Sequence record: PZ452610.1 | DNA: 64,000 bases | Reading direction: 5' to 3' (one strand) | From: a phage | Shown here: one piece after another, positions 3,105 through 61,086 of the stretch | Layout of the letters: every line of letters begins with the position of its first letter | How positions within the stretch are numbered: the first letter of the stretch is position 1 | Made by a program: the position numbers and the translations under genes | The notes under the pieces: model-generated | What the model saw: only the letters and a program-made list of their open reading frames with translations | The model's database searches: none | What the model was told of the DNA's origin: nothing

Positions 3105-3629
3105 TCATTTTAGCAAAATAAAATCAACTTGTTCTGCCAATGAACGTCTAAACATTAATTGACAACTTCCGAGTATGAAATCAGGTGCTTCATAGACCGC
3201 GATGTAGTATCCTTTAGCTTTCAAGAGTTCAACATCCACTTGGTCATCAAACCATGCATAAACCGCGTCAACACTTTCAAATCCAAAATAGAACCCTTGA
3301 GCCCAATCTTCACTCAATTCAAATGTGTACTCAATTCTATGGTATCTTAAGATATTTTGTTCAAGGAGTTTGTCTTCATTTACTGTAGGACGATTAGGGA
3401 CATTATAGTTGTCGCCGTGATGGTAGAAGTTACCTGAGAGTATTCCATGCTTATCAAGGAATTCCCATGTTTCTTCAGAGTTGTCGGTGCCTGACCAACC
3501 GTACGGCGAGCGAGGTTCTTTATTCCAAGAGGTTTCCCAAATTCTGACGGCTTTACCGTCTTCGATAGCAATTCCTGGTAATGATTCACGTTGAGTACAA
3601 AAACTACGTTCTACGCGGTAAACTAACAT
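3105..3629 (-). CDS. Hypothetical protein, 174 aa
   Basis: ATG 3629 with SD GAGGAG; early promoter immediately upstream. Confidence 0.6.
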   Translation of the reverse strand: MLVYRVERSFCTQRESLPGIAIEDGKAVRIWETSWNKEPRSPYGWSGTDNSEETWEFLDKHGILSGNFYHHGDNYNVPNRPTVNEDKLLEQNILRYHRIEYTFELSEDWAQGFYFGFESVDAVYAWFDDQVDVELLKAKGYYIAVYEAPDFILGSCQLMFRRSLAEQVDFILLK

Positions 3630-3655
3630 ATTATTCTCCTCTGGTTGATATGGTT

Positions 3656-3684
3656 ATAATATCAAATCCAGAGGAGAAGTAAAC
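3656..3684 (-). promoter_or_regulatory. T4-type early promoter (GTTTAC - 17 nt - TATTAT)
   Basis: Minus strand GTTTACTTCTCCTCTGGATTTGATATTAT; spacer TCCTCTGG is complementary to the downstream SD region CCAGAGGAG. Confidence 0.55.
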
Positions 3685-3688
3685 AACT

Positions 3689-4108
3689 TTATGCGAAAGC
3701 AGCTGGGCTATATTTTTTAATTTGGAATTCAGGAACTACCATGAACTGTCCAGCGAAAACAATGTTATAAAGCTTAACACCATCTTCTACCCAACGGTCG
3801 CTAATAAATCCGGCGATTTGCTTAGTTTTCCACGGTGTTCCATCAGTTGCCGCAGCAATAGTGAATTCATGGTCTTTTTCAACAGAAACTGATCTGCATA
3901 ATCCCCATTTGAACGCTTTTTCTTCCGGTTCAATGAATTGGCTTTTAACGTAACCAATGTTACCATCAGCGTCACGAACTTTAACTTCGTTACGTCCAAA
4001 AACAGGATCACTCACAGAAAGAACTTCAACCAACTTCCCGGCAACTTTAGAGCGAGAAGCAACAGATACATATACGTAATCACCTGTAGAGAGATTTACA
4101 ATATTCAT
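3689..4108 (-). CDS. Hypothetical protein, 139 aa; member A of a 3-gene tandem paralog family
   Basis: Shares C-terminal motif GFISDRWVEDGVKLYNIVFAGQF with the next two ORFs; SD AAGGAA. Confidence 0.6.
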   Translation of the reverse strand: MNIVNLSTGDYVYVSVASRSKVAGKLVEVLSVSDPVFGRNEVKVRDADGNIGYVKSQFIEPEEKAFKWGLCRSVSVEKDHEFTIAAATDGTPWKTKQIAGFISDRWVEDGVKLYNIVFAGQFMVVPEFQIKKYSPAAFA

Positions 4109-5158: not shown

Positions 5159-5188
5159 ATTATACTCCAACCATCCTTGGTTGTAAAC
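5159..5188 (-). promoter_or_regulatory. T4-type early promoter (GTTTAC - 18 nt - TATAAT)
   Basis: Minus strand GTTTACAACCAAGGATGGTTGGAGTATAAT; near-identical copies at about 47180 and 48200. Confidence 0.55.
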
Positions 5189-9070: not shown

Positions 9071-9652
9071 CTAAAAATTCAACATTTTCAAATGAATGAT
9101 TTTGTATAATCGAGATAAAGGGTCATATTCTAAGTCTTCAATTTCCACAATCTCAAATCTAGAGATACCTGAGACCATGTACTCTTGTTCAGATTCAATC
9201 ATATCTAGGACGTCAACACGCGTTTCTTCCATAACATGCTTAGGGTTCTTTCCGGCGAGTACAATGTTAATCATGTTTTGGTAGTAATCAAAAATGAATG
9301 GAGCATTCCTGAGACTAAGAATAGTGTACGTCTGATACTCCCAACTCCCAGAGAATTGACGAGCTGTACTGAAATCAGTTGTGAACGATGTTACTCGTCC
9401 AGGAGACCAATGGCATCCAACAGAAAGAAGGGAAAGACGTTCTACTTCTTCTGGAGTTACACCACGGTAGAGTTCTACTGGTACTGTAGAAGACATATGC
9501 TTACGAACAAGATGGTCTAATTCATAGTGGAAATCCGGGTCTTCCTTAGAATCGGTGCAAGCCCAGAGAATGTTTTGTTCTTGGCGGGTGAATTTGCTAT
9601 CAATCAGATTTGTTAGGTATTCGCGTTCTTGAAGTTCAGATTGACATGTCAT
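9071..9652 (-). CDS. modB: ADP-ribosyltransferase ModB-like
   Basis: 193 aa; YRGV ... SFTTDFS ... SEQEY motifs; paralogous to modA-like ORF. Confidence 0.6.
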   Translation of the reverse strand: MTCQSELQEREYLTNLIDSKFTRQEQNILWACTDSKEDPDFHYELDHLVRKHMSSTVPVELYRGVTPEEVERLSLLSVGCHWSPGRVTSFTTDFSTARQFSGSWEYQTYTILSLRNAPFIFDYYQNMINIVLAGKNPKHVMEETRVDVLDMIESEQEYMVSGISRFEIVEIEDLEYDPLSRLYKIIHLKMLNF

Positions 9653-9679
9653 GATAGACCTCCATTTAAAGATAAGCCT

Positions 9680-9708
9680 ATCATAACACGAGAGGAGGGA
9701 ATGTAAAC
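9680..9708 (-). promoter_or_regulatory. T4-type early promoter (GTTTAC - 17 nt - TATGAT) for modB
   Basis: Minus strand GTTTACATTCCCTCCTCTCGTGTTATGAT. Confidence 0.45.
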
Positions 9709-12470: not shown

Positions 12471-12668
12471 ATGTTTAAACTTCCATCGTTAATCAACGCT
12501 ATTAAAGGCAATAAAAAGAAAACTGCTATCGCTGCAATAGTTGTAGGTGGCATTATTTCATGGAACTTCGGGATTGCACCATTGTTAGTTGCCCATGGTA
12601 TTATAGTTCCTTCTGTTCCATTGGATACTGTAGTTGATTTGGCCTTTGCTATTATAGGGCTTGTTTAA
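12471..12668 (+). CDS. Small hydrophobic protein, 65 aa; only plus-strand gene candidate
   Basis: ATG preceded by strong SD AAGGAG at 5-nt spacing; predicted TM segment; stop overlaps the stop of convergent gene 61. Confidence 0.45.
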   Translation: MFKLPSLINAIKGNKKKTAIAAIVVGGIISWNFGIAPLLVAHGIIVPSVPLDTVVDLAFAIIGLV

Positions 12669-14412: not shown

Positions 14413-15072
14413 TTAACCTCGATTCATAAATGCATTAAATATTTGGTCATCAACAGAAATTTCTAATTCGACTTCAATTGCTTCGGCCTTTTCTTCAGGT
14501 GGTAATTCGTATCCACACACTACAATTTTTTCATCGATATCAAAATATACAGAAGCAATACGATTAATGTTATTTTCAGTTAAGTCCAAATCAACATCAA
14601 CATCTTTTTGGCCTACACTTAGAGGATAACTAATACGGGTTATTTTATTATCTTTAACAAAGAGTCCACCAACATACTCTGTACTACGTTTGAAGTTTAC
14701 ACGTTTCCGAATTGAAAGATATGATACATCTTTACCGTGAGCTCGGCTCATAGGACATAATGAATAGCTAGAATAAGAGATGTCAAATCCTACACCTTCA
14801 ATATGAGCCAACGCGTCATGATTAAACCAATTATAATCATATGCCAAATCCATTATATTGTAATATGTGAAAGGCACAGGATTAACATCATATGTTGTAC
14901 CTTTAAAATCTGCCCAGGCAACGATTTCGTTATCTTTAACAATTACAAAAATTACACCAATATGGTATCCTTTATTATTTTCATTCGGCGTTATATTATA
15001 ACATTGTGCATTAGGAAATTTACCATATTTAAATGGTGCGTTTTTGTGCATATAATAAATCATATTATTCAC
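14413..15072 (-). CDS. Hypothetical protein, 219 aa (61.2 position; candidate AdfA-like anti-DarT factor by synteny only)
   Basis: Position between 61 and sp as for T4 61.2; no motif recognised. Confidence 0.5.
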   Translation of the reverse strand: MNNMIYYMHKNAPFKYGKFPNAQCYNITPNENNKGYHIGVIFVIVKDNEIVAWADFKGTTYDVNPVPFTYYNIMDLAYDYNWFNHDALAHIEGVGFDISYSSYSLCPMSRAHGKDVSYLSIRKRVNFKRSTEYVGGLFVKDNKITRISYPLSVGQKDVDVDLDLTENNINRIASVYFDIDEKIVVCGYELPPEEKAEAIEVELEISVDDQIFNAFMNRG

Positions 15073-15358
15073 CTGTGATTTCGGTTACGATATCTTTGTT
15101 ATCGAAATTAGGGTCACAATACAAAACATAGTTGTACTGCATGATACCGCCAGACTTAAGTTGTTCAACAACTTTATTAACCATATTAGGACGGTCTCGT
15201 TTAGTGATGTTCATGATATCAGAGAAGATTTGTTGTTCAACATCTTCTTGATTTGCAGTCATTGACCACTCACAGAGGTCTTTATCATAACCTGCCGTAA
15301 CTGGAGCCGGTGCACATGATACTGCAAGTAAGATTGCTGCCAATGATAACTTTTTCAT
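15065..15358 (-). CDS. sp: Spackle-like periplasmic protein
   Basis: 97 aa with N-terminal signal peptide MKKLSLAAILLAVSCAPAP; length and position match T4 sp (61.3). Confidence 0.55.
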   Translation of the reverse strand: MKKLSLAAILLAVSCAPAPVTAGYDKDLCEWSMTANQEDVEQQIFSDIMNITKRDRPNMVNKVVEQLKSGGIMQYNYVLYCDPNFDNKDIVTEITGE

Positions 15359-15387
15359 TTTAACTCCTTAGTTGATTTGATAGGACT

Positions 15388-15417
15388 ACTATACTATAGT
15401 CCATCTATAATGTAAAC
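15388..15417 (-). promoter_or_regulatory. Early promoter (GTTTAC - 18 nt - TATAGT)
   Basis: Minus strand GTTTACATTATAGATGGACTATAGTATAGT then SD AAGGAG. Confidence 0.45.
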
Positions 15418-15421
15418 AAGT

Positions 15422-15670
15422 TTATTCTTTTTCGCGAATAATAATTACTTGTTGAGGCTGCTGAGCCGATTTCTTTTCGGCAACGATAGACCAAATTAAA
15501 GTTCCAATCCAACCAATCATCGTCCAGTTAAAGAGTAAAGATACAAAGAAGATTGCTGTTGTGCTTTTTGTGCCACGAATAAGTGCGATTACCCAAGGCA
15601 ACATGTAAATGATGATTGAACCAATACCTGCGATTAAAACTGCTACTGAACTAGCTACGAATAATTCCAT
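15422..15670 (-). CDS. Imm_superinfect-family small membrane protein (superinfection immunity-like)
   Basis: 82 aa, two TM segments; motif AIFFVSLLFNWTMIGWIGTLIW resembles the GWxGIGWI signature of the superinfection-immunity family. Confidence 0.55.
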   Translation of the reverse strand: MELFVASSVAVLIAGIGSIIIYMLPWVIALIRGTKSTTAIFFVSLLFNWTMIGWIGTLIWSIVAEKKSAQQPQQVIIIREKE

Positions 15671-15697
15671 GTTAATTTCCTCTTGATTTGTTATGTT

Positions 15698-15727
15698 TAT
15701 AATATCTTGTTTTAACTTTGGCGTAAA
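15698..15727 (-). promoter_or_regulatory. Early promoter (GTTTAC - 18 nt - TATTAT)
   Basis: Minus strand GTTTACGCCAAAGTTAAAACAAGATATTAT. Confidence 0.5.
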
Positions 15728-15731
15728 CCAA

Positions 15732-16100
15732 TTAATTAAATTTGTTTAAACGTTCAATACACTGGACGTAGTTATTCGCGATTTGTTTCTGGGTAGGCTC
15801 TTTACCAGTTGTTTCAACATAACGAATGAATGCGATTTCAGTAGCCTGTAGACAATGTTCTTTAACGCGTTGTTCTTTTGACAATGCTACAGTATCAGAG
15901 TCACGATAACGTTGAGCATGGGCATCAGCTTGAATCATTCGATTACCTACAGTAACCGGGTCTTCCACTTCAACTTTAGGTTGGTCGTACTGTTTAACAT
16001 TCGGATTGTAAATCAATTGGCCAACGTTATTAGGGATAAAGCCATGGGCACCACATCCGGTTAATCCAAATACCATTGCTAAAGCGATTAATTTTTTCAT
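15732..16100 (-). CDS. Putative lipoprotein, 122 aa
   Basis: Signal peptide with lipobox LTGC (MKKLIALAMVFGLTGCGA). Confidence 0.55.
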   Translation of the reverse strand: MKKLIALAMVFGLTGCGAHGFIPNNVGQLIYNPNVKQYDQPKVEVEDPVTVGNRMIQADAHAQRYRDSDTVALSKEQRVKEHCLQATEIAFIRYVETTGKEPTQKQIANNYVQCIERLNKFN

Positions 16101-16128
16101 TTCAATTTCCTCTGTAGTTGATAGAAAG

Positions 16129-16158
16129 ATAGTAACACAGTATGTGGGGCTTGTAAAC
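16129..16158 (-). promoter_or_regulatory. Early promoter (GTTTAC - 18 nt - TACTAT)
   Basis: Minus strand GTTTACAAGCCCCACATACTGTGTTACTAT. Confidence 0.45.
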
Positions 16159-16171
16159 AGTTATTTTAAAA

Positions 16172-16381
16172 TTATCGAAAATCTGCTTCGAAAACTTTCT
16201 CGTCATTAACAAATGCTTTAACTAATGCTTTGTTCACTTCAGCAAGTTGTACCGTAACCCACTCGATTTCTTCGCGATCACCTGATAACATGATATCTTT
16301 AGTGAACATCTCACCGCTTTTAAACCAACCGATAAAAGTAACTTTAGTTAATTTGCTCATATTTCCTCGCAAAATGCCCAT
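16172..16381 (-). CDS. Hypothetical protein, 69 aa
   Basis: ORF; likely true start at internal Met MSKLTKV. Confidence 0.4.
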   Translation of the reverse strand: MGILRGNMSKLTKVTFIGWFKSGEMFTKDIMLSGDREEIEWVTVQLAEVNKALVKAFVNDEKVFEADFR

Positions 16382-16674
16382 TCAGCGTGATAAACTGTAG
16401 CGCCTTTAGTATCATTCATTTGAACTACATCTACCGGAGAAATTACTCGATAGAGACGTGGTTCACCTCCATAAGAGCGTGCTGCTCGTCCTGCATAAAT
16501 CTTTGCTAAACCGATATCTTCAGTAAAGAATACACGATCCAAGTTTTTCTTACGTCCAGTTTCAGACAGAACTCCTGTTTCTTCAGGAGGACAAAGCATG
16601 TTTTCGATGTTAGCTGAACTACTTGAACCGTGATAAAAAATCTTAAATTCTGCTTTACAATCAATGGTTTTCAT
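16357..16674 (-). CDS. Hypothetical protein, 105 aa, with H-G-S ... IYAG motif (possible minimal ART-like fold)
   Basis: ATG 16674 with SD GGAG; FYHGSSS followed about 40 aa later by GLAKIYAGRAA. Confidence 0.5.
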   Translation of the reverse strand: MKTIDCKAEFKIFYHGSSSSANIENMLCPPEETGVLSETGRKKNLDRVFFTEDIGLAKIYAGRAARSYGGEPRLYRVISPVDVVQMNDTKGATVYHAEWAFCEEI

Positions 16675-16700
16675 TTTGTTCTCCGGTAGTTGATAGGTCT

Positions 16701-16729
16701 ATAATAACACAACTACCGGAGAAGTAAAC
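16701..16729 (-). promoter_or_regulatory. Early promoter (GTTTAC - 17 nt - TATTAT) with spacer/SD inverted repeat
   Basis: Spacer CTCCGGTAGTTG is the exact complement of leader CAACTACCGGAG, which contains the SD. Confidence 0.6.
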
Positions 16730-17104
16730 TTAAAAACGTAATTTAGATATATCTGCGTTGATTTCGTTTTGGTTTGCGTCGTATGCAATTAAACGAACCG
16801 CTTTAGATGGGTCATTCAATGCATAGAAATGATGGAACATTGCTCGAACGATATCACCATTTACGAGTTCTACCTGGATAGGAGAACCTTTTTCGAGTTG
16901 GAAATGTTCATAAGCTTTGATGGTTCGCAGATAATCAAGTTTTTGATTTCCAGCTCCAACAATTTGTACGATACGTTTGCCCATGTTTTCCATACGAGAT
17001 ACAATAGTTTTAGGAGCAAGAATAACGTAGGTTGCCAGTGGAGAAACTACTTCAACAGTTGTGTTTTCGGTGATTGCAGTAAAAATTGCTTGAGACATAT
17101 TCAT
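16730..17104 (-). CDS. Hypothetical protein, 124 aa
   Basis: ATG with SD AAGAGGAAAAC; own early promoter. Confidence 0.55.
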   Translation of the reverse strand: MNMSQAIFTAITENTTVEVVSPLATYVILAPKTIVSRMENMGKRIVQIVGAGNQKLDYLRTIKAYEHFQLEKGSPIQVELVNGDIVRAMFHHFYALNDPSKAVRLIAYDANQNEINADISKLRF

Positions 17105-17164
17105 AATGTTTTCCTCTTGGTTGGTGTAAGTACATCATATCATGCCTAGAGGAAGATGTAAACC

Positions 17165-17195
17165 CAGAAAGGAGACCGAAGTCTCCTTTTTATTA
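17165..17195 (-). terminator. Hairpin GGAGAC-TTCG-GTCTCC after gene 41
   Basis: Perfect 6-7 bp stem with UUCG loop; T-rich flank on both strands. Confidence 0.55.
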
Positions 17196-18635
17196 AAATT
17201 TTAACTCATTGGCTAAGCTATCTAGGTCAGCACGTGTTGCTTTGGCTTTACCTACGCGTTCCGTACGATTCACCTCTGCCTGACGCATCTGAGCACCTGC
17301 GTTTTCATTTACTGTGTTAGGTGTGTTCATGCCTTCTTGCTCAATCTCAATCCATTTCTGGTTGCCTTTACGTACACCCATCAGGAATTTATTCCACTTA
17401 TTCTTATCGCCGTATCGTGATTTGATTTGTTTGATAAGTTGTTGTTCAGCTTGTGCAAGTTCTTCGGTTTCAATTACAGCCAACATGAAATCCGCCGTTG
17501 CTGGTAAACCTGCTGATTCTGCAATATCACTCATGTTCATGTCTGAAGCATCCCATGCTGCACGTCCTACTTGAGCTGCAGTCCATAGAACTGTTTCAGA
17601 TTCTACTGCTAATGCACGAAGTTCTTCTGCGATAGCTTTAACTAATGTGTAGCTATTTTCAGTGTAAACTCTGATACGACAAGACCCACAAATACCTAAG
17701 TAATCAACCATGATTACAGATGGTACAAAGTTCTTCTTAAGTTTTAACTCATTAAGCAATGCACGAAATGTATTAGCATTAGCTCCACCAGTAGGATACT
17801 GTTTAACTACTAAACGTCCTAATGTTGTTTTTGAACGCCATTTTTCCATCTTGGCTTTATATTCAGCATAAGATACGTTACCATCATCAATATCATCAAG
17901 TGATACGTCAAGCATGTTTGCATCTATACGCTTAGCACAAACTTCTTCAGCCATTTCCATAGAAATATAAAGAACGTTATGACCTGTTTGAAGATAATCT
18001 GCAGCAAGTGAACAAAGGCCTAAAGATTTACCAACGTTAACACCGGCCATTAAAACGTTCAGTGTACCTGTTTCTGCACCACCTTTGGTGATTTTATTCA
18101 GAATGTTTAATTTGAACGGGACCTTACGTGCTTTATTTAGATAAGAAAGCCAGCGTGCTTCATAATCTTCCATCCAGTCATGGCCAACATAACTATCAAA
18201 CGAAATTGAAAGTGCTTGACGCATAATATCAGGAATAGCTCCTACGTCAGGCATTTTCTTGTTACGTTGTTCTGGAGGTAGTTCAGCATTAGACTGAATC
18301 TCAATGATTTTGGATGTAGCATTATACATCGCTTTTTGCTGGACATATTTCTCAGTTTCTTTAACCAACCATTCATGGTCTTCAGGAGTATCAGCCAATT
18401 TTTCAATTAGGTCTGAAGTTCCTTTATATTCGGCTTCAGTTAAAGAACTGTTATCTAAAGCCACCTTTAACGCATTGATAGATGGCATTGCATTATATTC
18501 GTTAACGTGGCTCTTTATAATTTTAAAGACATTTTTTGCCGGTCCACGCTCAAAATACTCAGAATCCATATAAGGCCAGACCTTAGAAAAATAAGCCTGG
18601 TCATATACGAGATGAGACAAAATAATTTCTACCAC
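17193..18635 (-). CDS. 41: Replicative DNA helicase gp41 (DnaB family)
   Basis: 480 aa; MVEIILSHLVYDQAYFSKVWPYMD... and Walker A GVNVGKS match T4 gp41; start codon appears to be GTG. Confidence 0.95.
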   Translation of the reverse strand: MVEIILSHLVYDQAYFSKVWPYMDSEYFERGPAKNVFKIIKSHVNEYNAMPSINALKVALDNSSLTEAEYKGTSDLIEKLADTPEDHEWLVKETEKYVQQKAMYNATSKIIEIQSNAELPPEQRNKKMPDVGAIPDIMRQALSISFDSYVGHDWMEDYEARWLSYLNKARKVPFKLNILNKITKGGAETGTLNVLMAGVNVGKSLGLCSLAADYLQTGHNVLYISMEMAEEVCAKRIDANMLDVSLDDIDDGNVSYAEYKAKMEKWRSKTTLGRLVVKQYPTGGANANTFRALLNELKLKKNFVPSVIMVDYLGICGSCRIRVYTENSYTLVKAIAEELRALAVESETVLWTAAQVGRAAWDASDMNMSDIAESAGLPATADFMLAVIETEELAQAEQQLIKQIKSRYGDKNKWNKFLMGVRKGNQKWIEIEQEGMNTPNTVNENAGAQMRQAEVNRTERVGKAKATRADLDSLANELKF

Positions 18636-23910: not shown

Positions 23911-24312
23911 TTATAGATTCGGTTTATATGATTTAAATGTTTCGAATTCGCCTTTATTCATAAGAGCTTTGAATTCGTCAGGACGCATAGCTTTGTCGTC
24001 GATAATCCAATCATATACTGGTTTATGTGTTAGCAAATTATGGTACTTCAAACCAATGTTTTCCAAGTTCTGAATCAGACTTGGGAGAATGTCAATTGCT
24101 ATACGACCAGGACCTACTGACTTCATACCGCGAGCAGTGTAAAGCGTTATGGTATGCCCTGCATCATACAGGGCATTAATAGCAGTCACCATTTCGACGT
24201 CTGGTTTGAAGTTCACGTAATCACGATTGTTATTCCACTCTGTTATACAATCATCGACATCAAAACAAAGATTAAGCATGTTTTCTACACGGTGCATTAG
24301 ATTCGTTCCCAT
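23911..24312 (-). CDS. HAD-superfamily phosphatase-like protein, 133 aa
   Basis: N-terminal FDVDDCIT (HAD motif I-like), TLYTARG (motif II), KPVYDWIIDD (motifs III/IV). Confidence 0.6.
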   Translation of the reverse strand: MGTNLMHRVENMLNLCFDVDDCITEWNNNRDYVNFKPDVEMVTAINALYDAGHTITLYTARGMKSVGPGRIAIDILPSLIQNLENIGLKYHNLLTHKPVYDWIIDDKAMRPDEFKALMNKGEFETFKSYKPNL

Positions 24313-25982
24313 TGATGAGTGATATCGCCACCGATTGGACGATAAGAAACACCAGTTTCTTTATCAGTTAGTACCCATTTACCAGGATTTTTTGTAATCA
24401 GAGTAGCCGTTACAGGTTCTGCTACGTCATAACTAATAGAGCCGTCCTGAAGTACACGGCCCATGTTACGTAATTGCTTAGTCAGAAGTTCCATACCTTT
24501 ATAATATGCGGCTACCGCTTTAAGTGGATTATTCTTGAAATAACCACCTAATGCAATCCAGATAATTGCTACAGCCAAATGATGATACTCGTTAAACGAA
24601 CTCATCTTTCCATATTTGTAAACTAATGGATTGATGTTAATAGTCACATTACAAGTTGTTTCGTCAATAGTAAACTGTCCCCAGGTCGGATTAGCGTTGA
24701 ATTCATCATAACCTGAAACAGCATAAAGCACTTTAGCTTCATCATACAATTTTGGCCCGTAAATCTTGGTTTCGCCAAAATATCCACGAGGGTCGATAAA
24801 CTTGACTTCGCCGTTATCAGTAATCATAGTATTACTGAAGTTCGGGTCACCGTGAATAACAGAGTACTGTCCCTGAGAACGGGTATGATAACGAATAAGA
24901 TGTTCTAAAGCTTGCTTCAGCATTGGCTTCAGACGTCCAATCTTAGTGTAGTTCACGTGTGTGATTTTACCAAATGAATCAATCAATGGCTGAATGCTTT
25001 CACAACGATCAATAACTTTCGTATAGAACTCTTTAGTGAAATCACGGCGAACAGTTTCAGGACTTACAAAATAAGTGTCTGTGCTGAATTTCAGTGCATC
25101 TAAAATTGCATCAACAATTTGTGGACGAGCAAGACTTGATTTGGATTTAATATATTCAAATGCTGGCTTACCTTTAATACGTTCCATTTCAAAATTATTT
25201 TCATTTACCGAAACTAACTGAGGAACTGAATCTGATTTCACTTTCAAATACCATGAAATCTCATCTTTTTGAAGAGCTCGACCTTGTTCGGTTAACGCGA
25301 ATTTAGTTACAGTTTCTTCGCCAATTTCAACTGCATTAAAACTACGATTAAGTTCACGAACTTCATGAGCTTTTTCAAGTTTAGGCATATCACCTAAATC
25401 AATTAGATTCATAAGCTCTGATTTATTGAATGCACTGCCGTAAAGGAATTCTACGAAATCACGTCCTTTGCAGTATTCATGAATTTCCTCATCAGTAGAA
25501 CCCATGTAGAATTCCCAGTCTTTGAACTGATAAATTCCTACAACATTACCGCCTGTTGAACCTACGTTAGTGATATTTTCACCATCGAAATTATATCGAC
25601 ATTCATCACCCTTAACATAGATTGCGTTAACATTCCAAGACCATGAACCAAAATCAGGAATAATATCACACCAGTTAACAATTACGTTATGGCCATCTAA
25701 ATCTTTGTATAATTTAGCAAGAGCATAAGCAGAACCATACGCTTCATCAACTGTACGAATAGTCACATTGAACCCTTCTTGCTCGCAATAAGCTCGAACA
25801 GTTTCAGCAAATTTTGAATGAACTACTACAATAATTTCATCTGCGCCAAGGTCAGAATAAATTGTATACAAATTGCTCAGAATAGTGTCTTGTTTATAGT
25901 TAACAAGAACTTTTGGAATATGATGCGTTATTGGATACAAACGAGTTGCCAGTCCAGCACCAAGAATAACAGCTTTTTTCAT
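24297..25982 (-). CDS. Bifunctional sugar-1-phosphate nucleotidyltransferase / APH-type sugar kinase
   Basis: 561 aa; N-terminus KAVILGAGLATRLYPITHHIPKVLV (NTP-transferase G-x-G-x-R-L); C-terminus HGDPNFSNTMITDNGEVKFIDPRGYFG (APH/ChoK catalytic loop). Confidence 0.75.
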   Translation of the reverse strand: MKKAVILGAGLATRLYPITHHIPKVLVNYKQDTILSNLYTIYSDLGADEIIVVVHSKFAETVRAYCEQEGFNVTIRTVDEAYGSAYALAKLYKDLDGHNVIVNWCDIIPDFGSWSWNVNAIYVKGDECRYNFDGENITNVGSTGGNVVGIYQFKDWEFYMGSTDEEIHEYCKGRDFVEFLYGSAFNKSELMNLIDLGDMPKLEKAHEVRELNRSFNAVEIGEETVTKFALTEQGRALQKDEISWYLKVKSDSVPQLVSVNENNFEMERIKGKPAFEYIKSKSSLARPQIVDAILDALKFSTDTYFVSPETVRRDFTKEFYTKVIDRCESIQPLIDSFGKITHVNYTKIGRLKPMLKQALEHLIRYHTRSQGQYSVIHGDPNFSNTMITDNGEVKFIDPRGYFGETKIYGPKLYDEAKVLYAVSGYDEFNANPTWGQFTIDETTCNVTININPLVYKYGKMSSFNEYHHLAVAIIWIALGGYFKNNPLKAVAAYYKGMELLTKQLRNMGRVLQDGSISYDVAEPVTATLITKNPGKWVLTDKETGVSYRPIGGDITHQWERI

Positions 25983-26023
25983 GTTGTGGTCCTCATTGGT
26001 AAGTAGGTGTATTGTACACTATT

Positions 26024-26167
26024 CTAGTTAAAGCATTCATACTTTGCTTGTAGTCCAATCATAATCCATCCAATTACAAGTGTTGGAATCATTACTGGAG
26101 CCGTTAAGCTCCAGTAGATAGTCATGACAAGCATCAATAGTAAAAGTCCTATTGTTATTGCTTTCAT
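26024..26167 (-). CDS. Possible small membrane peptide, 47 aa (not in ORF track)
   Basis: ATG overlaps the TGA of the SIS gene (ATGA coupling); MKAITIGLLLLMLVMTIYW... hydrophobic. Confidence 0.3.
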   Translation of the reverse strand: MKAITIGLLLLMLVMTIYWSLTAPVMIPTLVIGWIMIGLQAKYECFN

Positions 26168-26799
26168 TGTTCGCCTCGTAACATGGCACCTAGTGCACCG
26201 CCTGGATGGAACTTAAGAAAGTCATTAGAGGTAAATCCACGTTCAGACGAAAGGTTGATAGCAAACGTATCGATAAGCGCTAACAACAATGTAGTGGACA
26301 TAGTCGGAGCCAGAGAATTCTCATCAACCTCTACCGCGATGCCTGTACAGAAAGAGTAATCAAAAAGGGCTTCATTTTCTTGCGGAATGTCTGGGTTACA
26401 ATGCAACAGAATCTGTTTGACATTTGGACGAATCATTTTAAGATGCTTAGCCACGCCTATCATTTCTTCAGTCTTACCAGAACGACTAATATGAATCAAC
26501 ACATCATTAGGCGCAATGAATCCTGCATCACCGTGAGAATAATGCCCAGTGTTCAAGTACATACTCGGGATACCGAGTGAAGCAAATGTCTCAGAAGCTT
26601 TAGTTGCAATATTAGCATTCTTACCAACACCTGTAATAATTACTCGGCTTTCATAATTACTAAGTCCAGGGCGTCGAAGAGTTTCTAGAATAGCATTATA
26701 ACGAGCAGGGTTTTGACTAATTACTTTGGCCATAGCGGCCAAAGAAGAAGCTTGTTTTATGATTGCGTCAATAGCGATAGTAATAGGAGTAGTTTTCAT
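26164..26799 (-). CDS. Arabinose-5-phosphate isomerase-like SIS-domain protein (KdsD/GutQ type, no CBS domains)
   Basis: 211 aa; VIITGVGKNANIATKASETFASLGIPS...HGD...HISRSGKT and C-terminal HPGGALG parallel the E. coli KdsD SIS domain. Confidence 0.8.
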   Translation of the reverse strand: MKTTPITIAIDAIIKQASSLAAMAKVISQNPARYNAILETLRRPGLSNYESRVIITGVGKNANIATKASETFASLGIPSMYLNTGHYSHGDAGFIAPNDVLIHISRSGKTEEMIGVAKHLKMIRPNVKQILLHCNPDIPQENEALFDYSFCTGIAVEVDENSLAPTMSTTLLLALIDTFAINLSSERGFTSNDFLKFHPGGALGAMLRGEQ

Positions 26800-39890: not shown

Positions 39891-40108
39891 GACTTAATTT
39901 CCTTCGCAATTGAACAGAAGATACCACGGTCACAAAGCATTTCACCAATTTCTGGATATTTGATTGAACGGTACCAAACATCCAGGCTTGAAACTCTGGT
40001 TATCTGTACTGCATTACCGTTGACAGAATAGTACTGGTCAACCTTAATTTCTTTATCTTCAATTGTCATTTTATTTTCCTCTGTGGTAGATGGTGTTAAT
40101 CTTAACAT
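39887..40108 (-). CDS. Hypothetical protein, 73 aa
   Basis: ORF. Confidence 0.45.
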   Translation of the reverse strand: MLRLTPSTTEENKMTIEDKEIKVDQYYSVNGNAVQITRVSSLDVWYRSIKYPEIGEMLCDRGIFCSIAKEIKS

Positions 40109-40236
40109 ATCTATCGAGGATGTAAACTGGTTTTATGAAAATATTTTTGATTTGAGAGGGGCACAAGGAGATAGTGAAGTGAAGATTCCAATGGATTATA
40201 TTAGAAATGAGATAAAGAAGACCAGGCGGCACCTGG

Positions 40237-47140: not shown

Positions 47141-47179
47141 AATATTTTCCTCTCGTTAAGATAGATTCATTATACTCCA

Positions 47180-47210
47180 ACCATCCTTGGTTGTAAACTA
47201 TTTTATGATT
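47180..47210 (-). promoter_or_regulatory. Early promoter (GTTTAC - CCAAGGATGG spacer - TATAAT)
   Basis: Plus strand attatactccaaccatccttggttgtaaac; same as the 5159 promoter. Confidence 0.55.
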
Positions 47211-49823: not shown

Positions 49824-49858
49824 TAGGTCTATAATAACATAACCATAGACCTTGTAAA
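49824..49858 (-). promoter_or_regulatory. Early promoter (GTTTAC - 17 nt - TATTAT) with inverted repeat AGGTCTAT/ATAGACCT
   Basis: Minus strand GTTTACAAGGTCTATGGTTATGTTATTATAGACCTATC. Confidence 0.55.
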
Positions 49859-49861
49859 CAA

Positions 49862-53980: not shown

Positions 53981-54029
53981 CCGTTTGTTTTGGTAGGACT
54001 ACTATAACATAGTCCTACCAAGATGTAAA

Positions 54030-54236
54030 CTACCGATTGTGTTTTAAATGTTGATAAAGTTCTTCAACTTGTTTTGGGTCTAAAACAATTAGGTCATTTT
54101 CTTGGCGAAGATAAATCCATCCCTTATCCCCAGGACCATTTTTACAAAACATTGCCACCATATCATCATCTTCAGCGCTTTCAGGTAAAAGTTCAAGCAC
54201 ACCGTCTTCAGATTTTCTAGTATAATCGTAAAGCAT
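54030..54236 (-). CDS. Hypothetical acidic protein, about 68 aa
   Basis: ATG 54236 (MLYDYTRK...); track ORF starts at non-ATG upstream. Confidence 0.45.
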   Translation of the reverse strand: MLYDYTRKSEDGVLELLPESAEDDDMVAMFCKNGPGDKGWIYLRQENDLIVLDPKQVEELYQHLKHNR

Positions 54237-54423: not shown

Positions 54424-54489
54424 AGCGTTCTCCTATAGTAAGTAAGGACTACTATAACACAACCTGAGGAGAAGTAAACTGATAGATGC

Positions 54490-56759: not shown

Positions 56760-57069
56760 CTAGACGGTCCACCATAGAATTGCATGCTGCCTTATCTTTA
56801 GGTTCCGCCACCGAGCATTCTAATATTTGCCATTTTTTATAGTATCTTTTAATTAAGGTAGACGCCTTGAACCTACTAGACGCCCCATCTTTTTCTCCGT
56901 CTTTATACGCGTATAACAATTTTTGTGAAAAATCTACTTTACACTCTTGACTTTTACCACAATAATCAGACGCCGTTCTGTTTGTATACTCCGTTACATC
57001 AGTATATGTAGTATTAGCAAGAGCGTTAAATGAAACCAAGCTAACTATTAAAGCCAACATTTTGGTCAT
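56722..57069 (-). CDS. vs: Secreted protein, 115 aa, at the T4 vs position
   Basis: Same length as T4 Vs; N-terminal signal peptide MTKMLALIVSLVSFNALA. Confidence 0.45.
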   Translation of the reverse strand: MTKMLALIVSLVSFNALANTTYTDVTEYTNRTASDYCGKSQECKVDFSQKLLYAYKDGEKDGASSRFKASTLIKRYYKKWQILECSVAEPKDKAACNSMVDRLVDSYTRGLAASD

Positions 57070-57608
57070 TCTTTTATTTCCAGTAGTTTATTTGATTTAA
57101 GGTAATTAGCCTTTTCTAGGACTTCAGAAGCATATTTACTTCCAGCACTTGTCTTCCATCCCGCATTATATGAGGATATGGCTTTTCTTATATCCCCGTT
57201 ATGTATATTTAACCAATAAGAAAATTCGATATAAGCCCATCTGGCTGAATTAGACCGCTTAGATAGCATTTTCTTAATTTGGGCATCAGTCATATTATAA
57301 CCAAGCTGGTTAATTCTTGCCCTCATTGTTGGTAGATAGTTTTGGAACATTCCATACGCATGGTGACCTTTCTTATCTTTAAGATTAATACCGGCAGATG
57401 ATTCTTGCCATAGTATTGCGGCCATTATGTATCCAAGTCCTTTCTTATGCATATTTTCATGCGTTTTAAATTTTCCATCCTTAGAAAACTGTTCCCCAAA
57501 CTGATAAGCATAATTCAAGTTATCGAGTTGGACATTACTAAAAGTATGCTCGGAGCTATGTGCTGATAACGAAAGAGCAAATAGACCAGCGAGTAGTGCT
57601 TTTCTCAT
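57066..57608 (-). CDS. vs.1: Secreted lytic-transglycosylase-like protein (vs.1 position)
   Basis: Signal peptide MRKALLAGLFALSLSA; SLT-like catalytic segment AAILWQESSAG. Confidence 0.6.
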   Translation of the reverse strand: MRKALLAGLFALSLSAHSSEHTFSNVQLDNLNYAYQFGEQFSKDGKFKTHENMHKKGLGYIMAAILWQESSAGINLKDKKGHHAYGMFQNYLPTMRARINQLGYNMTDAQIKKMLSKRSNSARWAYIEFSYWLNIHNGDIRKAISSYNAGWKTSAGSKYASEVLEKANYLKSNKLLEIKE

Positions 57609-57616
57609 GTTTACCT

Positions 57617-58075
57617 CTAGATTTTAATCACTGCTTTAGAAGCTTTTCCTGGTAGTCGTTTACTGTTAATAATAGCCATTCTGCATTGAAGAGTCTTCAT
57701 TTTGAATGCTGGATTTTCGCGACAAACTGTAAGTCCTAACCAAAGATTTCCATCAGTTATTTCTAAACGGCCTGGGCGATATTCGACACCTTCGACAAAA
57801 TCTTCATCAACATCTGGACGGGCTGGCATTGATAAAAATTCTGCAACTTCTTTAACATGATTTTTTACTTTATGAAATAATTCAAAAACGTAATTCTCAT
57901 CTATTTCTCTCTGGATGGCACGATCTAAGAGATGTTGAGAATACTTGATATGAAAGCCTGGTAGTCCAAGAGACTTTGCAGCATCTTTTATACTGGCATT
58001 TATTTTGCGGAACTCCGTTTCAAAGATTCGACGGAGTTTATTGCGGCGGATAAAAACGTCTGAATTGATAGTCAT
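57617..58075 (-). CDS. regB: RegB site-specific endoribonuclease
   Basis: 152 aa; MTINSDVFIRRNKLRRIFETEFRKIN... and C-terminal RLPGKASKAVIKI match T4 RegB. Confidence 0.9.
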   Translation of the reverse strand: MTINSDVFIRRNKLRRIFETEFRKINASIKDAAKSLGLPGFHIKYSQHLLDRAIQREIDENYVFELFHKVKNHVKEVAEFLSMPARPDVDEDFVEGVEYRPGRLEITDGNLWLGLTVCRENPAFKMKTLQCRMAIINSKRLPGKASKAVIKI

Positions 58076-58103
58076 TTTGATTTCTCCTCTAGTTGACAGG
58101 TCT

Positions 58104-58132
58104 ATAGTAACACAACTAGAGGAGAAGTAAAC
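58104..58132 (-). promoter_or_regulatory. Early promoter (GTTTAC - 17 nt - TACTAT) for regB with spacer/SD inverted repeat
   Basis: Spacer TCTCCTCTAGTTG is the exact complement of leader CAACTAGAGGAGA; covaries with the 16701-16729 promoter. Confidence 0.6.
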
Positions 58133-58890: not shown

Positions 58891-59252
58891 TATAGACTCT
58901 CAGTAAAGGTACGAGCGATAACGTCGCGCTGCTGTTCCGGGGTCAGAGAGTTAAAGCGAACTGCATAACCGGATACACGGATGGTCAGCTGTGGATATTT
59001 TTCCGGATGCTTAACTGCATCTTCCAGAGTTTCGCGACGCAGAACGTTAACGTTCAGATGTTGACCACCTTCAATTTTAACTTTAGGTTGATGTTCAATT
59101 TCAATTTCACGGGCATTCAAACCGTAGAAAATTTCCGGGTCTACAATAGCGTCTTCTTTAAAAGTCTTAGAGACGATAATCCGGGCTTGAGTACCGTCTT
59201 CAAAATAAATAGTGCCTTTATGTGCACCTTCAAGAATTTGATATGCTTTCAT
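58890..59252 (-). CDS. GrcA/YfiD-like autonomous glycyl radical cofactor
   Basis: 120 aa; C-terminal [25 protein letters not shown] is the glycyl-radical signature; SD GAGGT. Confidence 0.75.
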
Positions 59253-59258
59253 ATAACC

Positions 59259-59567
59259 TCAATTAGAAAATAAATTTATCCAAGTTTTTTCTTTAATCAA
59301 AAATGGGTCAGAACTAAACGCCATTAAACTTTGAGTGATTAATCCCTTAAATGGCCCATCAATAAATTCCATTTTGAAATGCGGAATACTAGTCATCAAC
59401 CGTGCGTTAGGAGCAGTACAAAGAACCTGCTGCCCTGCGAACGGACCTTTAGTCAAACGGTATCGTTTAGGTTTAAAATGGTAAATCTCGTAATTTTCTA
59501 CAAGAGCCCTTTTATTGCATACTGGGCTGTTATAACAATATTCAAAAACTTCAATAGTGGTCATCAT
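59259..59567 (-). CDS. Hypothetical protein, 102 aa
   Basis: ORF. Confidence 0.45.
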   Translation of the reverse strand: MMTTIEVFEYCYNSPVCNKRALVENYEIYHFKPKRYRLTKGPFAGQQVLCTAPNARLMTSIPHFKMEFIDGPFKGLITQSLMAFSSDPFLIKEKTWINLFSN

Positions 59568-60103
59568 TGCATTCCAATCACAAAAAATTGAGGACGAGCA
59601 TTACCGCCGATGCAATATTTGCTTTTGCAGCAGTACTGTACTGTTTTAATATGGACATTGTAAATCTTATCCATATCAGGAGCTTTAATAGGCTCGTCAA
59701 TTATATACAGAATACGAGAAAGCGTTAATCCACGGAATTTAGAACCTTCATTGCCAATAAAACTACGAACAGAATCAGTAAATAAACGGAATCGAATATC
59801 ATCGCTAGAATAACGAGAAAATTCTTTTTCAATGTTACCAGCAGAAATTTTAGCATAAGCTGAAGTATTAGAAAGAACAATAACTGTTCCGCCATCATAC
59901 AGCCAATTAGCAGCAAAGTTAGTCACAGCAATTGATTTACCGGATTGTCTGCCACCGTCTAAACGAAGTGTACAGTACTGCTTGAGTACGTCTTCAAACG
60001 GTGGGATATAACCGTTCTTACAAATTTCTTCTACTCTAGCATCAGAATGGTGTGTAAAAGCATTCATCAGGGATAGATAAGGTCCAGTTAAAAATGTTCT
60101 CAT
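59564..60103 (-). CDS. Hypothetical protein, 179 aa, possible P-loop
   Basis: GGRQSGKS Walker-A-like and ILYIIDEP Walker-B-like segments. Confidence 0.5.
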   Translation of the reverse strand: MRTFLTGPYLSLMNAFTHHSDARVEEICKNGYIPPFEDVLKQYCTLRLDGGRQSGKSIAVTNFAANWLYDGGTVIVLSNTSAYAKISAGNIEKEFSRYSSDDIRFRLFTDSVRSFIGNEGSKFRGLTLSRILYIIDEPIKAPDMDKIYNVHIKTVQYCCKSKYCIGGNARPQFFVIGMQ

Positions 60104-60614: not shown

Positions 60615-61028
60615 TTAGTAAATTGATTTACCATAGTATTTGTACCAAGTCGGACGTTGAGCAATTTTTTCATCTAAGCGTGCTTGACTTATCGCAATGG
60701 ACGCTTCGGACGGGACGTAATTATTACGAAATTCTACAGGAATGTCGGAAATATCCTGGACTGTCGTGTCCTTGATTTTGAAACCACGTTTCAAGCATTC
60801 GGCGATTAGCTCGATTTGACGTAAACGTAAAAATTCGAGTTTGTCGTAAAAGAATGTTACGTGACCTGTGCCTAAGATAAATGTTGGAGAGATTTTAAAA
60901 TCCTTTACACGTTTACCGTTTTGAACATGTTTACGGACTGCACCAAATACGCGTGGTAATTCACGATACTCAGCCATAAGATGTTGGTCGGACAGTTCAG
61001 AAACAAGTGTTAAATTGATACGAGTCAT
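60615..61028 (-). CDS. denV: Endonuclease V (DenV), pyrimidine-dimer DNA glycosylase
   Basis: [35 protein letters not shown]... matches T4 DenV; ATG 61028 with SD GGAGGAAA. Confidence 0.95.
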
Positions 61029-61086
61029 AATTTCCTCCAAGTAGTTGATGAATGTATAGTATCAAAACTCTTGGAGGAAGTAAACA

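Follow-up and report, generated by a model that had tools for sequence, protein, structure and literature searches.

Early promoter cassettes of the phage genome

The 64,000-nucleotide stretch analyzed herein (sequence record PZ452610.1; hereafter the window) belongs to a phage of the genus Mosigvirus (Straboviridae, Tevenvirinae); over the 4 kb compared, it showed 100% identity with E. coli O157 typing phage 3, and a window position x is equivalent to position 147740 - x of the record. The minus strand is the gene strand in the window, and a search for GTTTAC-N16-18-TANNNT, the hexamer GTTTAC being the T4-type early -35 consensus (PMC1524935), gave 22 matches versus 2.8 expected, 21 of which lay on the gene strand. 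Each match was followed by a stereotyped leader of 26-30 nt with a Shine-Dalgarno (SD) sequence and ATG, and 38 such promoter cassettes with SD and ATG were found genome-wide. The upstream ORFs were co-oriented, with their stop codons 0-4 nt 5' of the -35 element and no terminator-like site in between. The local transcription starts were predicted as the 7th base after the -10 element, according to the numbering of PMC1524935.

As for the surrounding genes, a 65-aa ORF, gp155 (12471..12668, plus strand), was found in the otherwise minus-strand early block just downstream of the primase gene. Furthermore, at about 23911..26799, an arabinose-5-phosphate isomerase (KpsF), a GlmU-like bifunctional protein, and a phosphoheptose isomerase are annotated beside the DNA polymerase gene, a position at which T4 has no such cluster. 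This cluster may have to do with the modification of DNA by sugars in Mosigvirus.

Inverted repeats joining the promoter to the SD region

At the gp164 cassette (site 1), the minus strand reads GTTTAC-TTCTCCGGTAGTTG-TGT-TATTAT-agacctat-CAACTACCGGAGAA-caaa-ATG (16729..16672), and at the regB cassette (site 2), it reads GTTTAC-TTCTCCTCTAGTTG-TGT-TACTAT-agacctgt-CAACTAGAGGAGAA-atcaaa-ATG (58132..58073). The initial annotation of this DNA had described, at 16681-16729 and 58083-58132, a promoter spacer that is the exact reverse complement of the SD-containing leader. Both repeats were indeed perfect, and each spans 14 bp, two more than had been counted. The pairing-preserving differences between the two sites were recovered as well, and are read here as GG/CC versus TC/GA. 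At both sites, the 5' arm occupies most of the -35/-10 spacer, the loop contains the extended -10 element, and the 3' arm contains the SD. In the window, repeats with the 3' arm on the SD and/or AUG were present at five sites (16729, 58132, 61085, 3684, and 9708), the cassettes at 61085 and 9708 having been absent from the initial list. Their features are as follows.

16724..16729, minus strand: -35 element GTTTAC of site 1, the early promoter of the 105-aa ORF gp164
16710..16723, minus strand: 5' arm of site 1, TTCTCCGGTAGTTG, in the promoter spacer and 5' of the predicted start
16701..16709, minus strand: extended -10 element of site 1, TGT-TATTAT, located in the loop, with the start predicted at about 16694
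16679..16692, minus strand: 3' arm of site 1, CAACTACCGGAGAA, holding the SD GGAG; ATG at 16674..16672
58073..58132, minus strand: regB cassette (site 2), with -35 at 58132..58127, -10 at 58109..58104, and ATG at 58075
58126..58113 and 58095..58082, minus strand: 5' arm TTCTCCTCTAGTTG and 3' arm CAACTAGAGGAGAA of regB; predicted start at about 58097
61026..61085, minus strand: denV cassette, with -10 at 61061..61056, predicted start at about 61049, and ATG at 61028
61079..61070 and 61041..61032, minus strand: 5' arm TTCCTCCAAG and 3' arm CTTGGAGGAA of denV, 10 bp on the SD
3627..3684, minus strand: cassette of the 174-aa ORF gp135, with ATG at 3629 and an inner 7-bp stem TTGATAT/ATATCAA
3678..3668 and 3644..3634, minus strand: 5' arm TTCTCCTCTGG and 3' arm CCAGAGGAGAA of gp135, 11 bp
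9645..9708, minus strand: RNA polymerase ADP-ribosyltransferase cassette, of a second architecture in which T4 modB is laid out alike
9690..9675, minus strand: 5' arm of the 9708 site, overlapping the -10 element (9685..9680) and ending before the predicted start at about 9673
9660..9645, minus strand: 3' arm of the 9708 site, covering the end of the SD and the AUG (9652..9650), 16+3 bp

The regB gene was identified as the 152-aa ORF at 58075..57617 (Pfam REGB_T4, 2e-69); in the public annotation, a "RegB" note is also attached to the neighboring ORFs gp246, gp245, and gp239 (about 59200..60100 and 57000..57600), the Pfam scan having covered the 152-aa ORF alone among these four. The denV product was recognized by Pfam Pyr_excise, and the gene immediately upstream of denV encodes an internal head protein. 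The ORFs gp164 and gp135 are of unknown function.

Predicted folding of read-through and local transcripts

Read-through RNA across the five SD/AUG stems was predicted to fold at -23 to -27 kcal/mol, with z-scores of -3.2 to -5.4 relative to shuffled sequences. The individual values were -26.5 kcal/mol (z -5.4) at 16729, -23.1 kcal/mol (z -3.2) at 58132, -24.2 kcal/mol (z -3.6) at 61085, and -26.1 kcal/mol (z -4.8) at 3684, the SD being inside the hairpin in each of these, and -26.8 kcal/mol (z -3.9) at 9708. The 3684 site, listed initially as a shorter version of the repeat at 3650-3690, thus proved to be a strong one, its 11 bp being supplemented by the inner 7-bp stem.

The predicted starts fall 3' of the 5' arm and 2-10 nt 5' of the 3' arm, and the resulting local leaders of 23-25 nt had an MFE of 0 with no predicted structure. 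Opening of the region from -14 to +3 was predicted to cost 15-20 kcal/mol in the read-through RNA versus 2-5 kcal/mol in the local transcript, and the difference was at least 8 kcal/mol in 15 of the 72 cassettes of this genome and T4. These predictions were in good agreement with the two halves of the initial proposal, namely that the SD would be masked in transcripts reading through from upstream, and that local transcripts, starting within the repeat, would leave it free. Taking the start sites from the promoter consensus, we infer that read-through RNA crosses these cassettes and that its folding affects translation. We estimate a probability of roughly 60% that the SD is masked in read-through RNA only and free on the local transcript, with translation of the gene being tied to its own early promoter.

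Translational coupling, in which a ribosome terminating on the upstream gene would melt the stem, was also considered. A ribosome on a stop codon unwinds about 5-7 nt beyond it, and the upstream stop codon lies 5-10 nt 5' of the 5' arm. Coupling was regarded as unlikely because at most 0-2 bp of the stem would be opened.

Pairing in excess of chance and its covariation

Since a pyrimidine-rich spacer will by default show complementarity to a purine-rich SD, each spacer was compared both with its own leader and with the leaders of the other promoters in terms of the longest perfect complement. Own pairs averaged 6.7 in the window versus 4.8 ± 0.3 for cross pairs, 6.1 versus 4.66 ± 0.18 for the 38 promoters of the whole genome, and 6.0 versus 4.41 ± 0.16 for 37 promoters of T4, with 0 of 20000 permutations reaching the observed value in each of these comparisons. 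Own pairs of at least 10 bp were found at 7 of the 38 promoters genome-wide, as opposed to 0.36% of cross pairs. The repeats were therefore more than the promoter and SD consensus would supply, the contrary of the outcome that the initial annotation had named as speaking against its own proposal.

The alignment of promoters with covariation statistics that it had suggested was made from 44 distinct cassettes, ungapped and with the invariant CTCC and GGAG cores as its sole anchors. For the positions flanking these cores, the covariation score was 0.285, compared with 0.117 ± 0.012 in shuffled alignments (0/500) and 0.03-0.10 in slid registers; cells changed on both sides numbered 91 versus 46 ± 4.5, and the pairs adjoining the CTCC/GGAG core occurred as 3-5 pair types. 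When viral contigs were scanned with no constraint other than the promoter hexamers and the head of the leader, 29 distinct cassettes were collected, among which the variable dinucleotide in SD-covering stems was AG/CT, AT/AT, TG/CA, GG/CC, or TC/GA. A protein operator was rejected as an account of the repeats, the arms covarying rather than holding a fixed sequence. When RNAalifold was applied to plain MAFFT alignments of the regB and denV promoter-to-ATG segments, almost no consensus helix was obtained, because the arms lie at varying offsets from the -35 element and the loops differ in length, which brings the alignment out of register. One contig cassette (L082; IMG/VR contig 641509422) combined a 5' arm, CTCCATTAG, and a 3' arm, CTACTGGAG, from different cassette types with a single U.C mismatch, and from its sequence looks like a recombinant of two cassettes.

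That the repeats merely reflect chance and consensus, spacers such as TTCTCC being trivially complementary to SDs such as GGAGAA, does hold for the shortest of them. Complements of 4-6 bp between CTCC and GGAG are common between unrelated promoters and leaders (cross-pair mean 4.4-4.8), and the 7-bp stems at 17163 (z -0.1), which the initial annotation had counted among the shorter versions (17110-17160), and at 54479 folded no differently from shuffled sequences. This explanation, however, meets with the frequency of own pairs of 10 bp or longer and with permutation and covariation controls that were exceeded throughout. It is thus refuted for the long stems and continues to apply to those of 5-7 bp, and as an account of the whole phenomenon it is scarcely credible.

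The strand on which the pairing takes place was addressed by scoring G.U and A.C alike in the helix search. The strong helices, some of which are related by descent, contained 19 G.U versus 6 A.C (p about 0.003; the G.U fraction in cross pairs was 0.47), and the SD-covering helices among them gave a ratio of 13:2 (p about 0.002). This excess of G.U over A.C favors pairing in the sense-strand RNA.

Predicted masking hairpins in T4 and orthologous cassettes

In T4, the same three genes, regB, denV, and modB, carry predicted masking hairpins with arm sequences other than those of the window (z -3.9, -3.6, and -4.1, respectively). The regB orthologs of several genera have, beside the CTCC/GGAG core, the arms TCTAGTTG/CAACTAGA and CTTGACTG/CAGTTAAG, the latter with two G.U, and further CTTTATG/CATAAAG and TGTAAGT/ACTTACA, amounting to at least four unrelated inner-arm sequences, every one of which is paired. 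Likewise, four arm pairs were seen among the denV orthologs (CAAG/CTTG, TGTAG/CTACA, GTTTG/CAAAC, and TGTG/CACA).

In other lineages, the 5' arm of denV is located on the -10/+1 region (tatGATGTCTTCC...GGAGGACATC-ATG), and this second architecture is shared by some denV orthologs, the 9708 site of the window, and T4 modB. In both architectures, the 3' arm lies on the SD/AUG and the 5' arm lies 5' of the predicted start. Such an arrangement is to be expected from SD masking, but not from a generic hairpin model.

Variation at site 1 and the adjacent module

Site 1 was further compared among 127 related records, about 100 of which have exactly two differences from the window. One of its pairs is A.U in NBG1 (about 100 records) and G.C in the window lineage, and appears in single records as G.U (HX01) and A.C (ST0), so that all four states of this pair are found in nature. 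In F2, a C.A mismatch lies two pairs away from it. Over a 71-nt stretch in five Mosigvirus-type phages (the window and loci L186-L189), three positions were variable, all of them in the stem. These sequences suggest that the pairing at site 1 has been kept through change in the population. The long stem is lineage-specific, relatives at about 90% identity keeping a 5-6-bp core, and judged from this distribution it is a young one.

Upstream of site 1 lies the following module.

16730..17163, minus strand: gp165 module of about 434 bp, comprising the body of promoter 17163 and the 124-aa ORF gp165

The gp165 product belongs to a PHROG of unknown function. The module is flanked by two promoter cassettes and is missing from RB69-like relatives, with the junction inside a cassette; in these relatives, gp164 comes directly after a terminator, and the complement between spacer and SD is just 5-6 bp. 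Site 1 fits the idea that a stem stands in for an upstream terminator as an anecdote only, in that the terminator-bearing relatives have the short core. In this genome and T4 together, SD-covering stems showed no association with a missing upstream terminator (1/11 versus 9/61, Fisher p = 1), and the idea was rejected. Directly 5' of promoter 17163 and after the gene 41 helicase, a terminator-like hairpin with a UUCG tetraloop, GAGACTTCGGTCTC, followed by CTTTCT, was found at 17185..17164; UUCG-tetraloop hairpins with T-runs precede several other promoters here and in T4.

The location of the cassettes raises the alternative that the repeats act at the level of DNA without any RNA function, serving as patches of homology for recombination and being quasi-palindromes perfected by template-switch correction, in which case the coupled arm changes would be mutational. 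Templated mutation at quasi-palindromes is known in T4 rII. The cassettes do stand at an indel junction, the L082 cassette is apparently recombinant, and the confinement of the three variable positions of site 1 to the stem is compatible with such a process; PeSL-mediated recombination has moreover been observed experimentally (PMC2839356). Pairing in DNA, however, would not be expected to yield a strand-specific excess of G.U over A.C, loops of 17-28 nt are unfavorable to cruciform formation or hairpin templating, and the single-step intermediates G.U and A.C both occur. Nor does this alternative foresee a 3' arm that tracks the SD/AUG across unrelated arm sequences. We consider it quite improbable.

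Weaker repeats and repeats that leave the SD outside the stem

Weaker or differently placed repeats were found at the following sites.

40067..40127, minus strand: interrupted weaker stem, TCCTC/GAGGA plus TAGAT/ATCTA (z -2.4; 3 of 200 shuffles fold as well)
53990..54030, minus strand: 11-bp repeat TTGGTAGGACT/AGTCCTACCAA, in which the spacer pairs with the +1 region and the SD is outside
49825..49859, minus strand: 8-bp core repeat AGGTCTAT/ATAGACCT, which flanks the -10 element and leaves the SD outside the core

The 40127 site was marginal in the folding prediction. At 53985-54015 and 49824-49858, where shorter versions of the SD-pairing repeat had been proposed, repeats were indeed present and gave strong core stems around the -10 element, but the pairing of the SD was not borne out: the 11-bp repeat flanks the -10 element, and at 49859 it is the weak, G.U-rich outer extension of the predicted fold alone that reaches the SD.

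Genome-wide, three positional classes were distinguished, in which the spacer pairs with the SD, the spacer pairs with the +1 region, or a hairpin is contained within the spacer. In the second class, the extended -10 element is enclosed in a loop of 10-12 nt and the SD lies outside the core stem; T4 has such repeats at its record positions 65799 (ipII, 14 bp), 57990 (13 bp), and 20612 (dmd, 9 bp). These spacer/+1 stems would occur in read-through RNA only, and SD masking leaves them unexplained. As to the third class, identical 30-bp promoters, GTTTACAACCAAGGATGGTTGGAGTATAAT, are located at 47198..47169 and 5188..5159, each with a small hairpin wholly inside the spacer (CAACCA-AGGA-TGGTTG), and spacer-internal hairpins of this kind were also seen elsewhere in the genome and in RB49. 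The initial annotation was therefore right about SD pairing at several promoters and too general in extending it. Because many promoter-embedded repeats do not touch the SD, SD masking is not the sole reason for the repeats.

Comparison with known systems

The closest precedents are the T4 genes e, soc, 49, and I-TevI, whose long early transcripts are kept silent by a hairpin that covers the ribosome-binding site, translation taking place from late-promoter transcripts starting inside the hairpin (PMC3014915). The present cassettes resemble them in phage lineage, in similar stem sizes, in the sequestration, predicted for the present cassettes, of the SD and/or AUG in transcripts from far upstream, and in a promoter in or beside the 5' arm that gives rise to a shorter RNA devoid of this arm, the translation of which is known for the T4 genes and predicted here. 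In the window, the SD is contained in perfect 10-14-bp stems at 16729, 58132, 61085, and 3684, and the end of the SD together with the AUG in a 16+3-bp stem at 9708; the -10 element is in the loop or the 5' arm, as placed relative to predicted starts. The two arrangements differ in the internal promoter. In the T4 genes, it is a late one (TATAAATA), and translation is delayed until late, whereas in the present cassettes it is an early promoter of the sigma-70 type, with the 5' arm usually in the -35/-10 spacer. The use of an early instead of a late internal promoter leads to the prediction of a mirror image, in which translation would proceed only while early promoters fire. The present arrangement is also frequent, accounting for about one in five early cassettes in T4 and this phage. 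A related case of transcript-specific masking of a ribosome-binding site is mobE of Aeh1, and outside phages, sigG of B. subtilis is reportedly another.

No match to Rfam 15 was obtained at the gathering threshold in the whole window, and the literature searched, which excludes the 2003 T4 genome review and the promoter papers of the 1980s-90s, gave no earlier account of pairing between an early-promoter spacer and the SD. The principle of SD masking is already known in T4 biology, and its use with early promoters appears to be new.

In their layout, the cassettes also agree with the PeSL elements (PMC2839356, PMC4122927), which consist of an intergenic stop codon, an AT-rich stretch, an early promoter, a stem-loop, an SD, and an ATG and are repeated many times, and which flank insertions and deletions between close relatives, represented here by the gp165 module. 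A strong sigma-70-like intergenic promoter, a stem-loop in or over it, numerous copies, and the indel association were all found. PeSL stem-loops have been reported upstream of the -35 element, on it, in the spacer, on the -10 element, and just before the start (PMC2839356), and in T4/PST they were marked only upstream of the promoter (PMC2839356, PMC4122927). An SD that serves as the 3' arm, as seen here, is not among the described subclasses. Nor is it a general PeSL property, since the first 50 kb of RB49 contained no SD-covering stems, the own-versus-cross signal there being weak (p about 0.05).

The PeSL stem-loops have been interpreted as terminators or attenuators and as recombination sites (PMC2839356). 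If the stems of the present cassettes likewise terminated or attenuated upstream transcription, the overlap with the SD would be a by-product or would matter only indirectly, through Rho-dependent polarity on an untranslated gene. In addition to the PeSL layout and the indel that the cassettes flank, this is suggested by one PeSL stem-loop of RB49, which lowered the expression of lacZ in a fusion vector as a strong terminator would (PMC2839356). The SD-covering stems, however, are followed by no U-tract, their A-rich tails being caaaATG, atcaaaATG, attATG, and taatATG, their loops of 17-28 nt are unlike those of intrinsic terminators, and a terminator scan of 15000-18000 detected none at site 1. 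On these grounds, intrinsic termination was rejected. Genuine UUCG-tetraloop terminators with T-runs occur separately, upstream of other promoters, and a pure terminator model does not foresee a 3' arm that is fixed on the SD/AUG while the 5' arm shifts its position. Taken as a whole, termination or attenuation appears distinctly unlikely as the role of these stems.

RegB control has in common with the hairpins the SD motif GGAG and the genes concerned, among them regB as a conserved hairpin case. RegB is a trans-acting nuclease on free SDs, whereas the hairpin is a cis element that would be present in read-through RNA only. It is known that RegB autoregulates by cleavage of its own GGAG SD and that secondary structure blocks RegB (PMC3014915, PMC1702504), and we infer a link between RegB control and the hairpin.

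It is conceivable that the hairpin forms and serves for protection. The buried GGAG would then keep polycistronic read-through RNA safe from RegB, a nuclease whose targets are single-stranded GGAG motifs in early SDs, and from the decay that follows, so that the downstream cistrons survive. All strong 3' arms contain GGAG, regB is encoded in the window, GGAGAACAAAA of site 1 is an exact fit to the RegB consensus GGAGRAYARAA (PMC3014915), and GGAGAATAATA of gp135 fits it at all but one position. On the other hand, T4 denV has the hairpin though its GGAG is by sequence a poor RegB substrate (PMC1702504), and in the stems of the second architecture (9708 and T4 modB), the AUG is no less central than GGAG. 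We regard protection in place of silencing as unlikely; the two are nonetheless compatible, one structure yielding both, and a shield for GGAG against RegB is plausible as an additional effect of the hairpin.

Proposed mechanism and its implications

In the SD-masking mechanism that we propose, the early promoter would also encode the 5' half of a hairpin, in the -35/-10 spacer or, in the second layout, on the -10/+1 region, and the 3' half would be the SD region, sometimes with the AUG, of the promoter's own gene. A polymerase arriving from an upstream promoter would copy both halves, and the SD would be locked in a 10-19-bp stem upon its emergence, resulting in poor translation of the read-through RNA. 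A polymerase starting at the local promoter would begin in the loop and copy the 3' half only, giving a short unstructured leader with a free SD; in T4, the denV SD is accessible in vivo on the transcript from its own promoter (PMC1702504). For regB, denV, the ADP-ribosyltransferase gene, and some small ORFs, translation would thereby be tied to their own early promoters, and with these promoters being shut off within minutes of infection, the genes would be insulated from middle and late read-through. Such insulation makes sense for regB, itself under tight control and autoregulated through the GGAG of its SD, and would also make sense for denV in its position directly behind the internal head protein gene. 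A broader reading, in which each promoter-plus-ORF module is its own translational insulator by means of an anti-SD in the -35/-10 spacer, portable through recombination and general among T-even phages, is put forward tentatively, and we hold it to be possible rather than probable.

If the proposed mechanism is correct, about one-fifth of the early genes in T4 and its relatives would be translated only from transcripts of their own promoters, and RNA abundance would be a poor guide to the synthesis of the products affected, which include RegB, DenV, and the RNA polymerase ADP-ribosyltransferase. The control of regB, already tight, would gain a second layer, promoter-embedded stem-loops hitherto taken as terminators would acquire a concrete function, and synthetic biology would be offered a compact design rule, the placement of an anti-SD in the promoter spacer. 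Should the broader insulator reading also hold, PeSL-type modules would be portable, and part of the mismatch in timing between T4 transcripts and proteins (raised in PMC9697503) could be explained.
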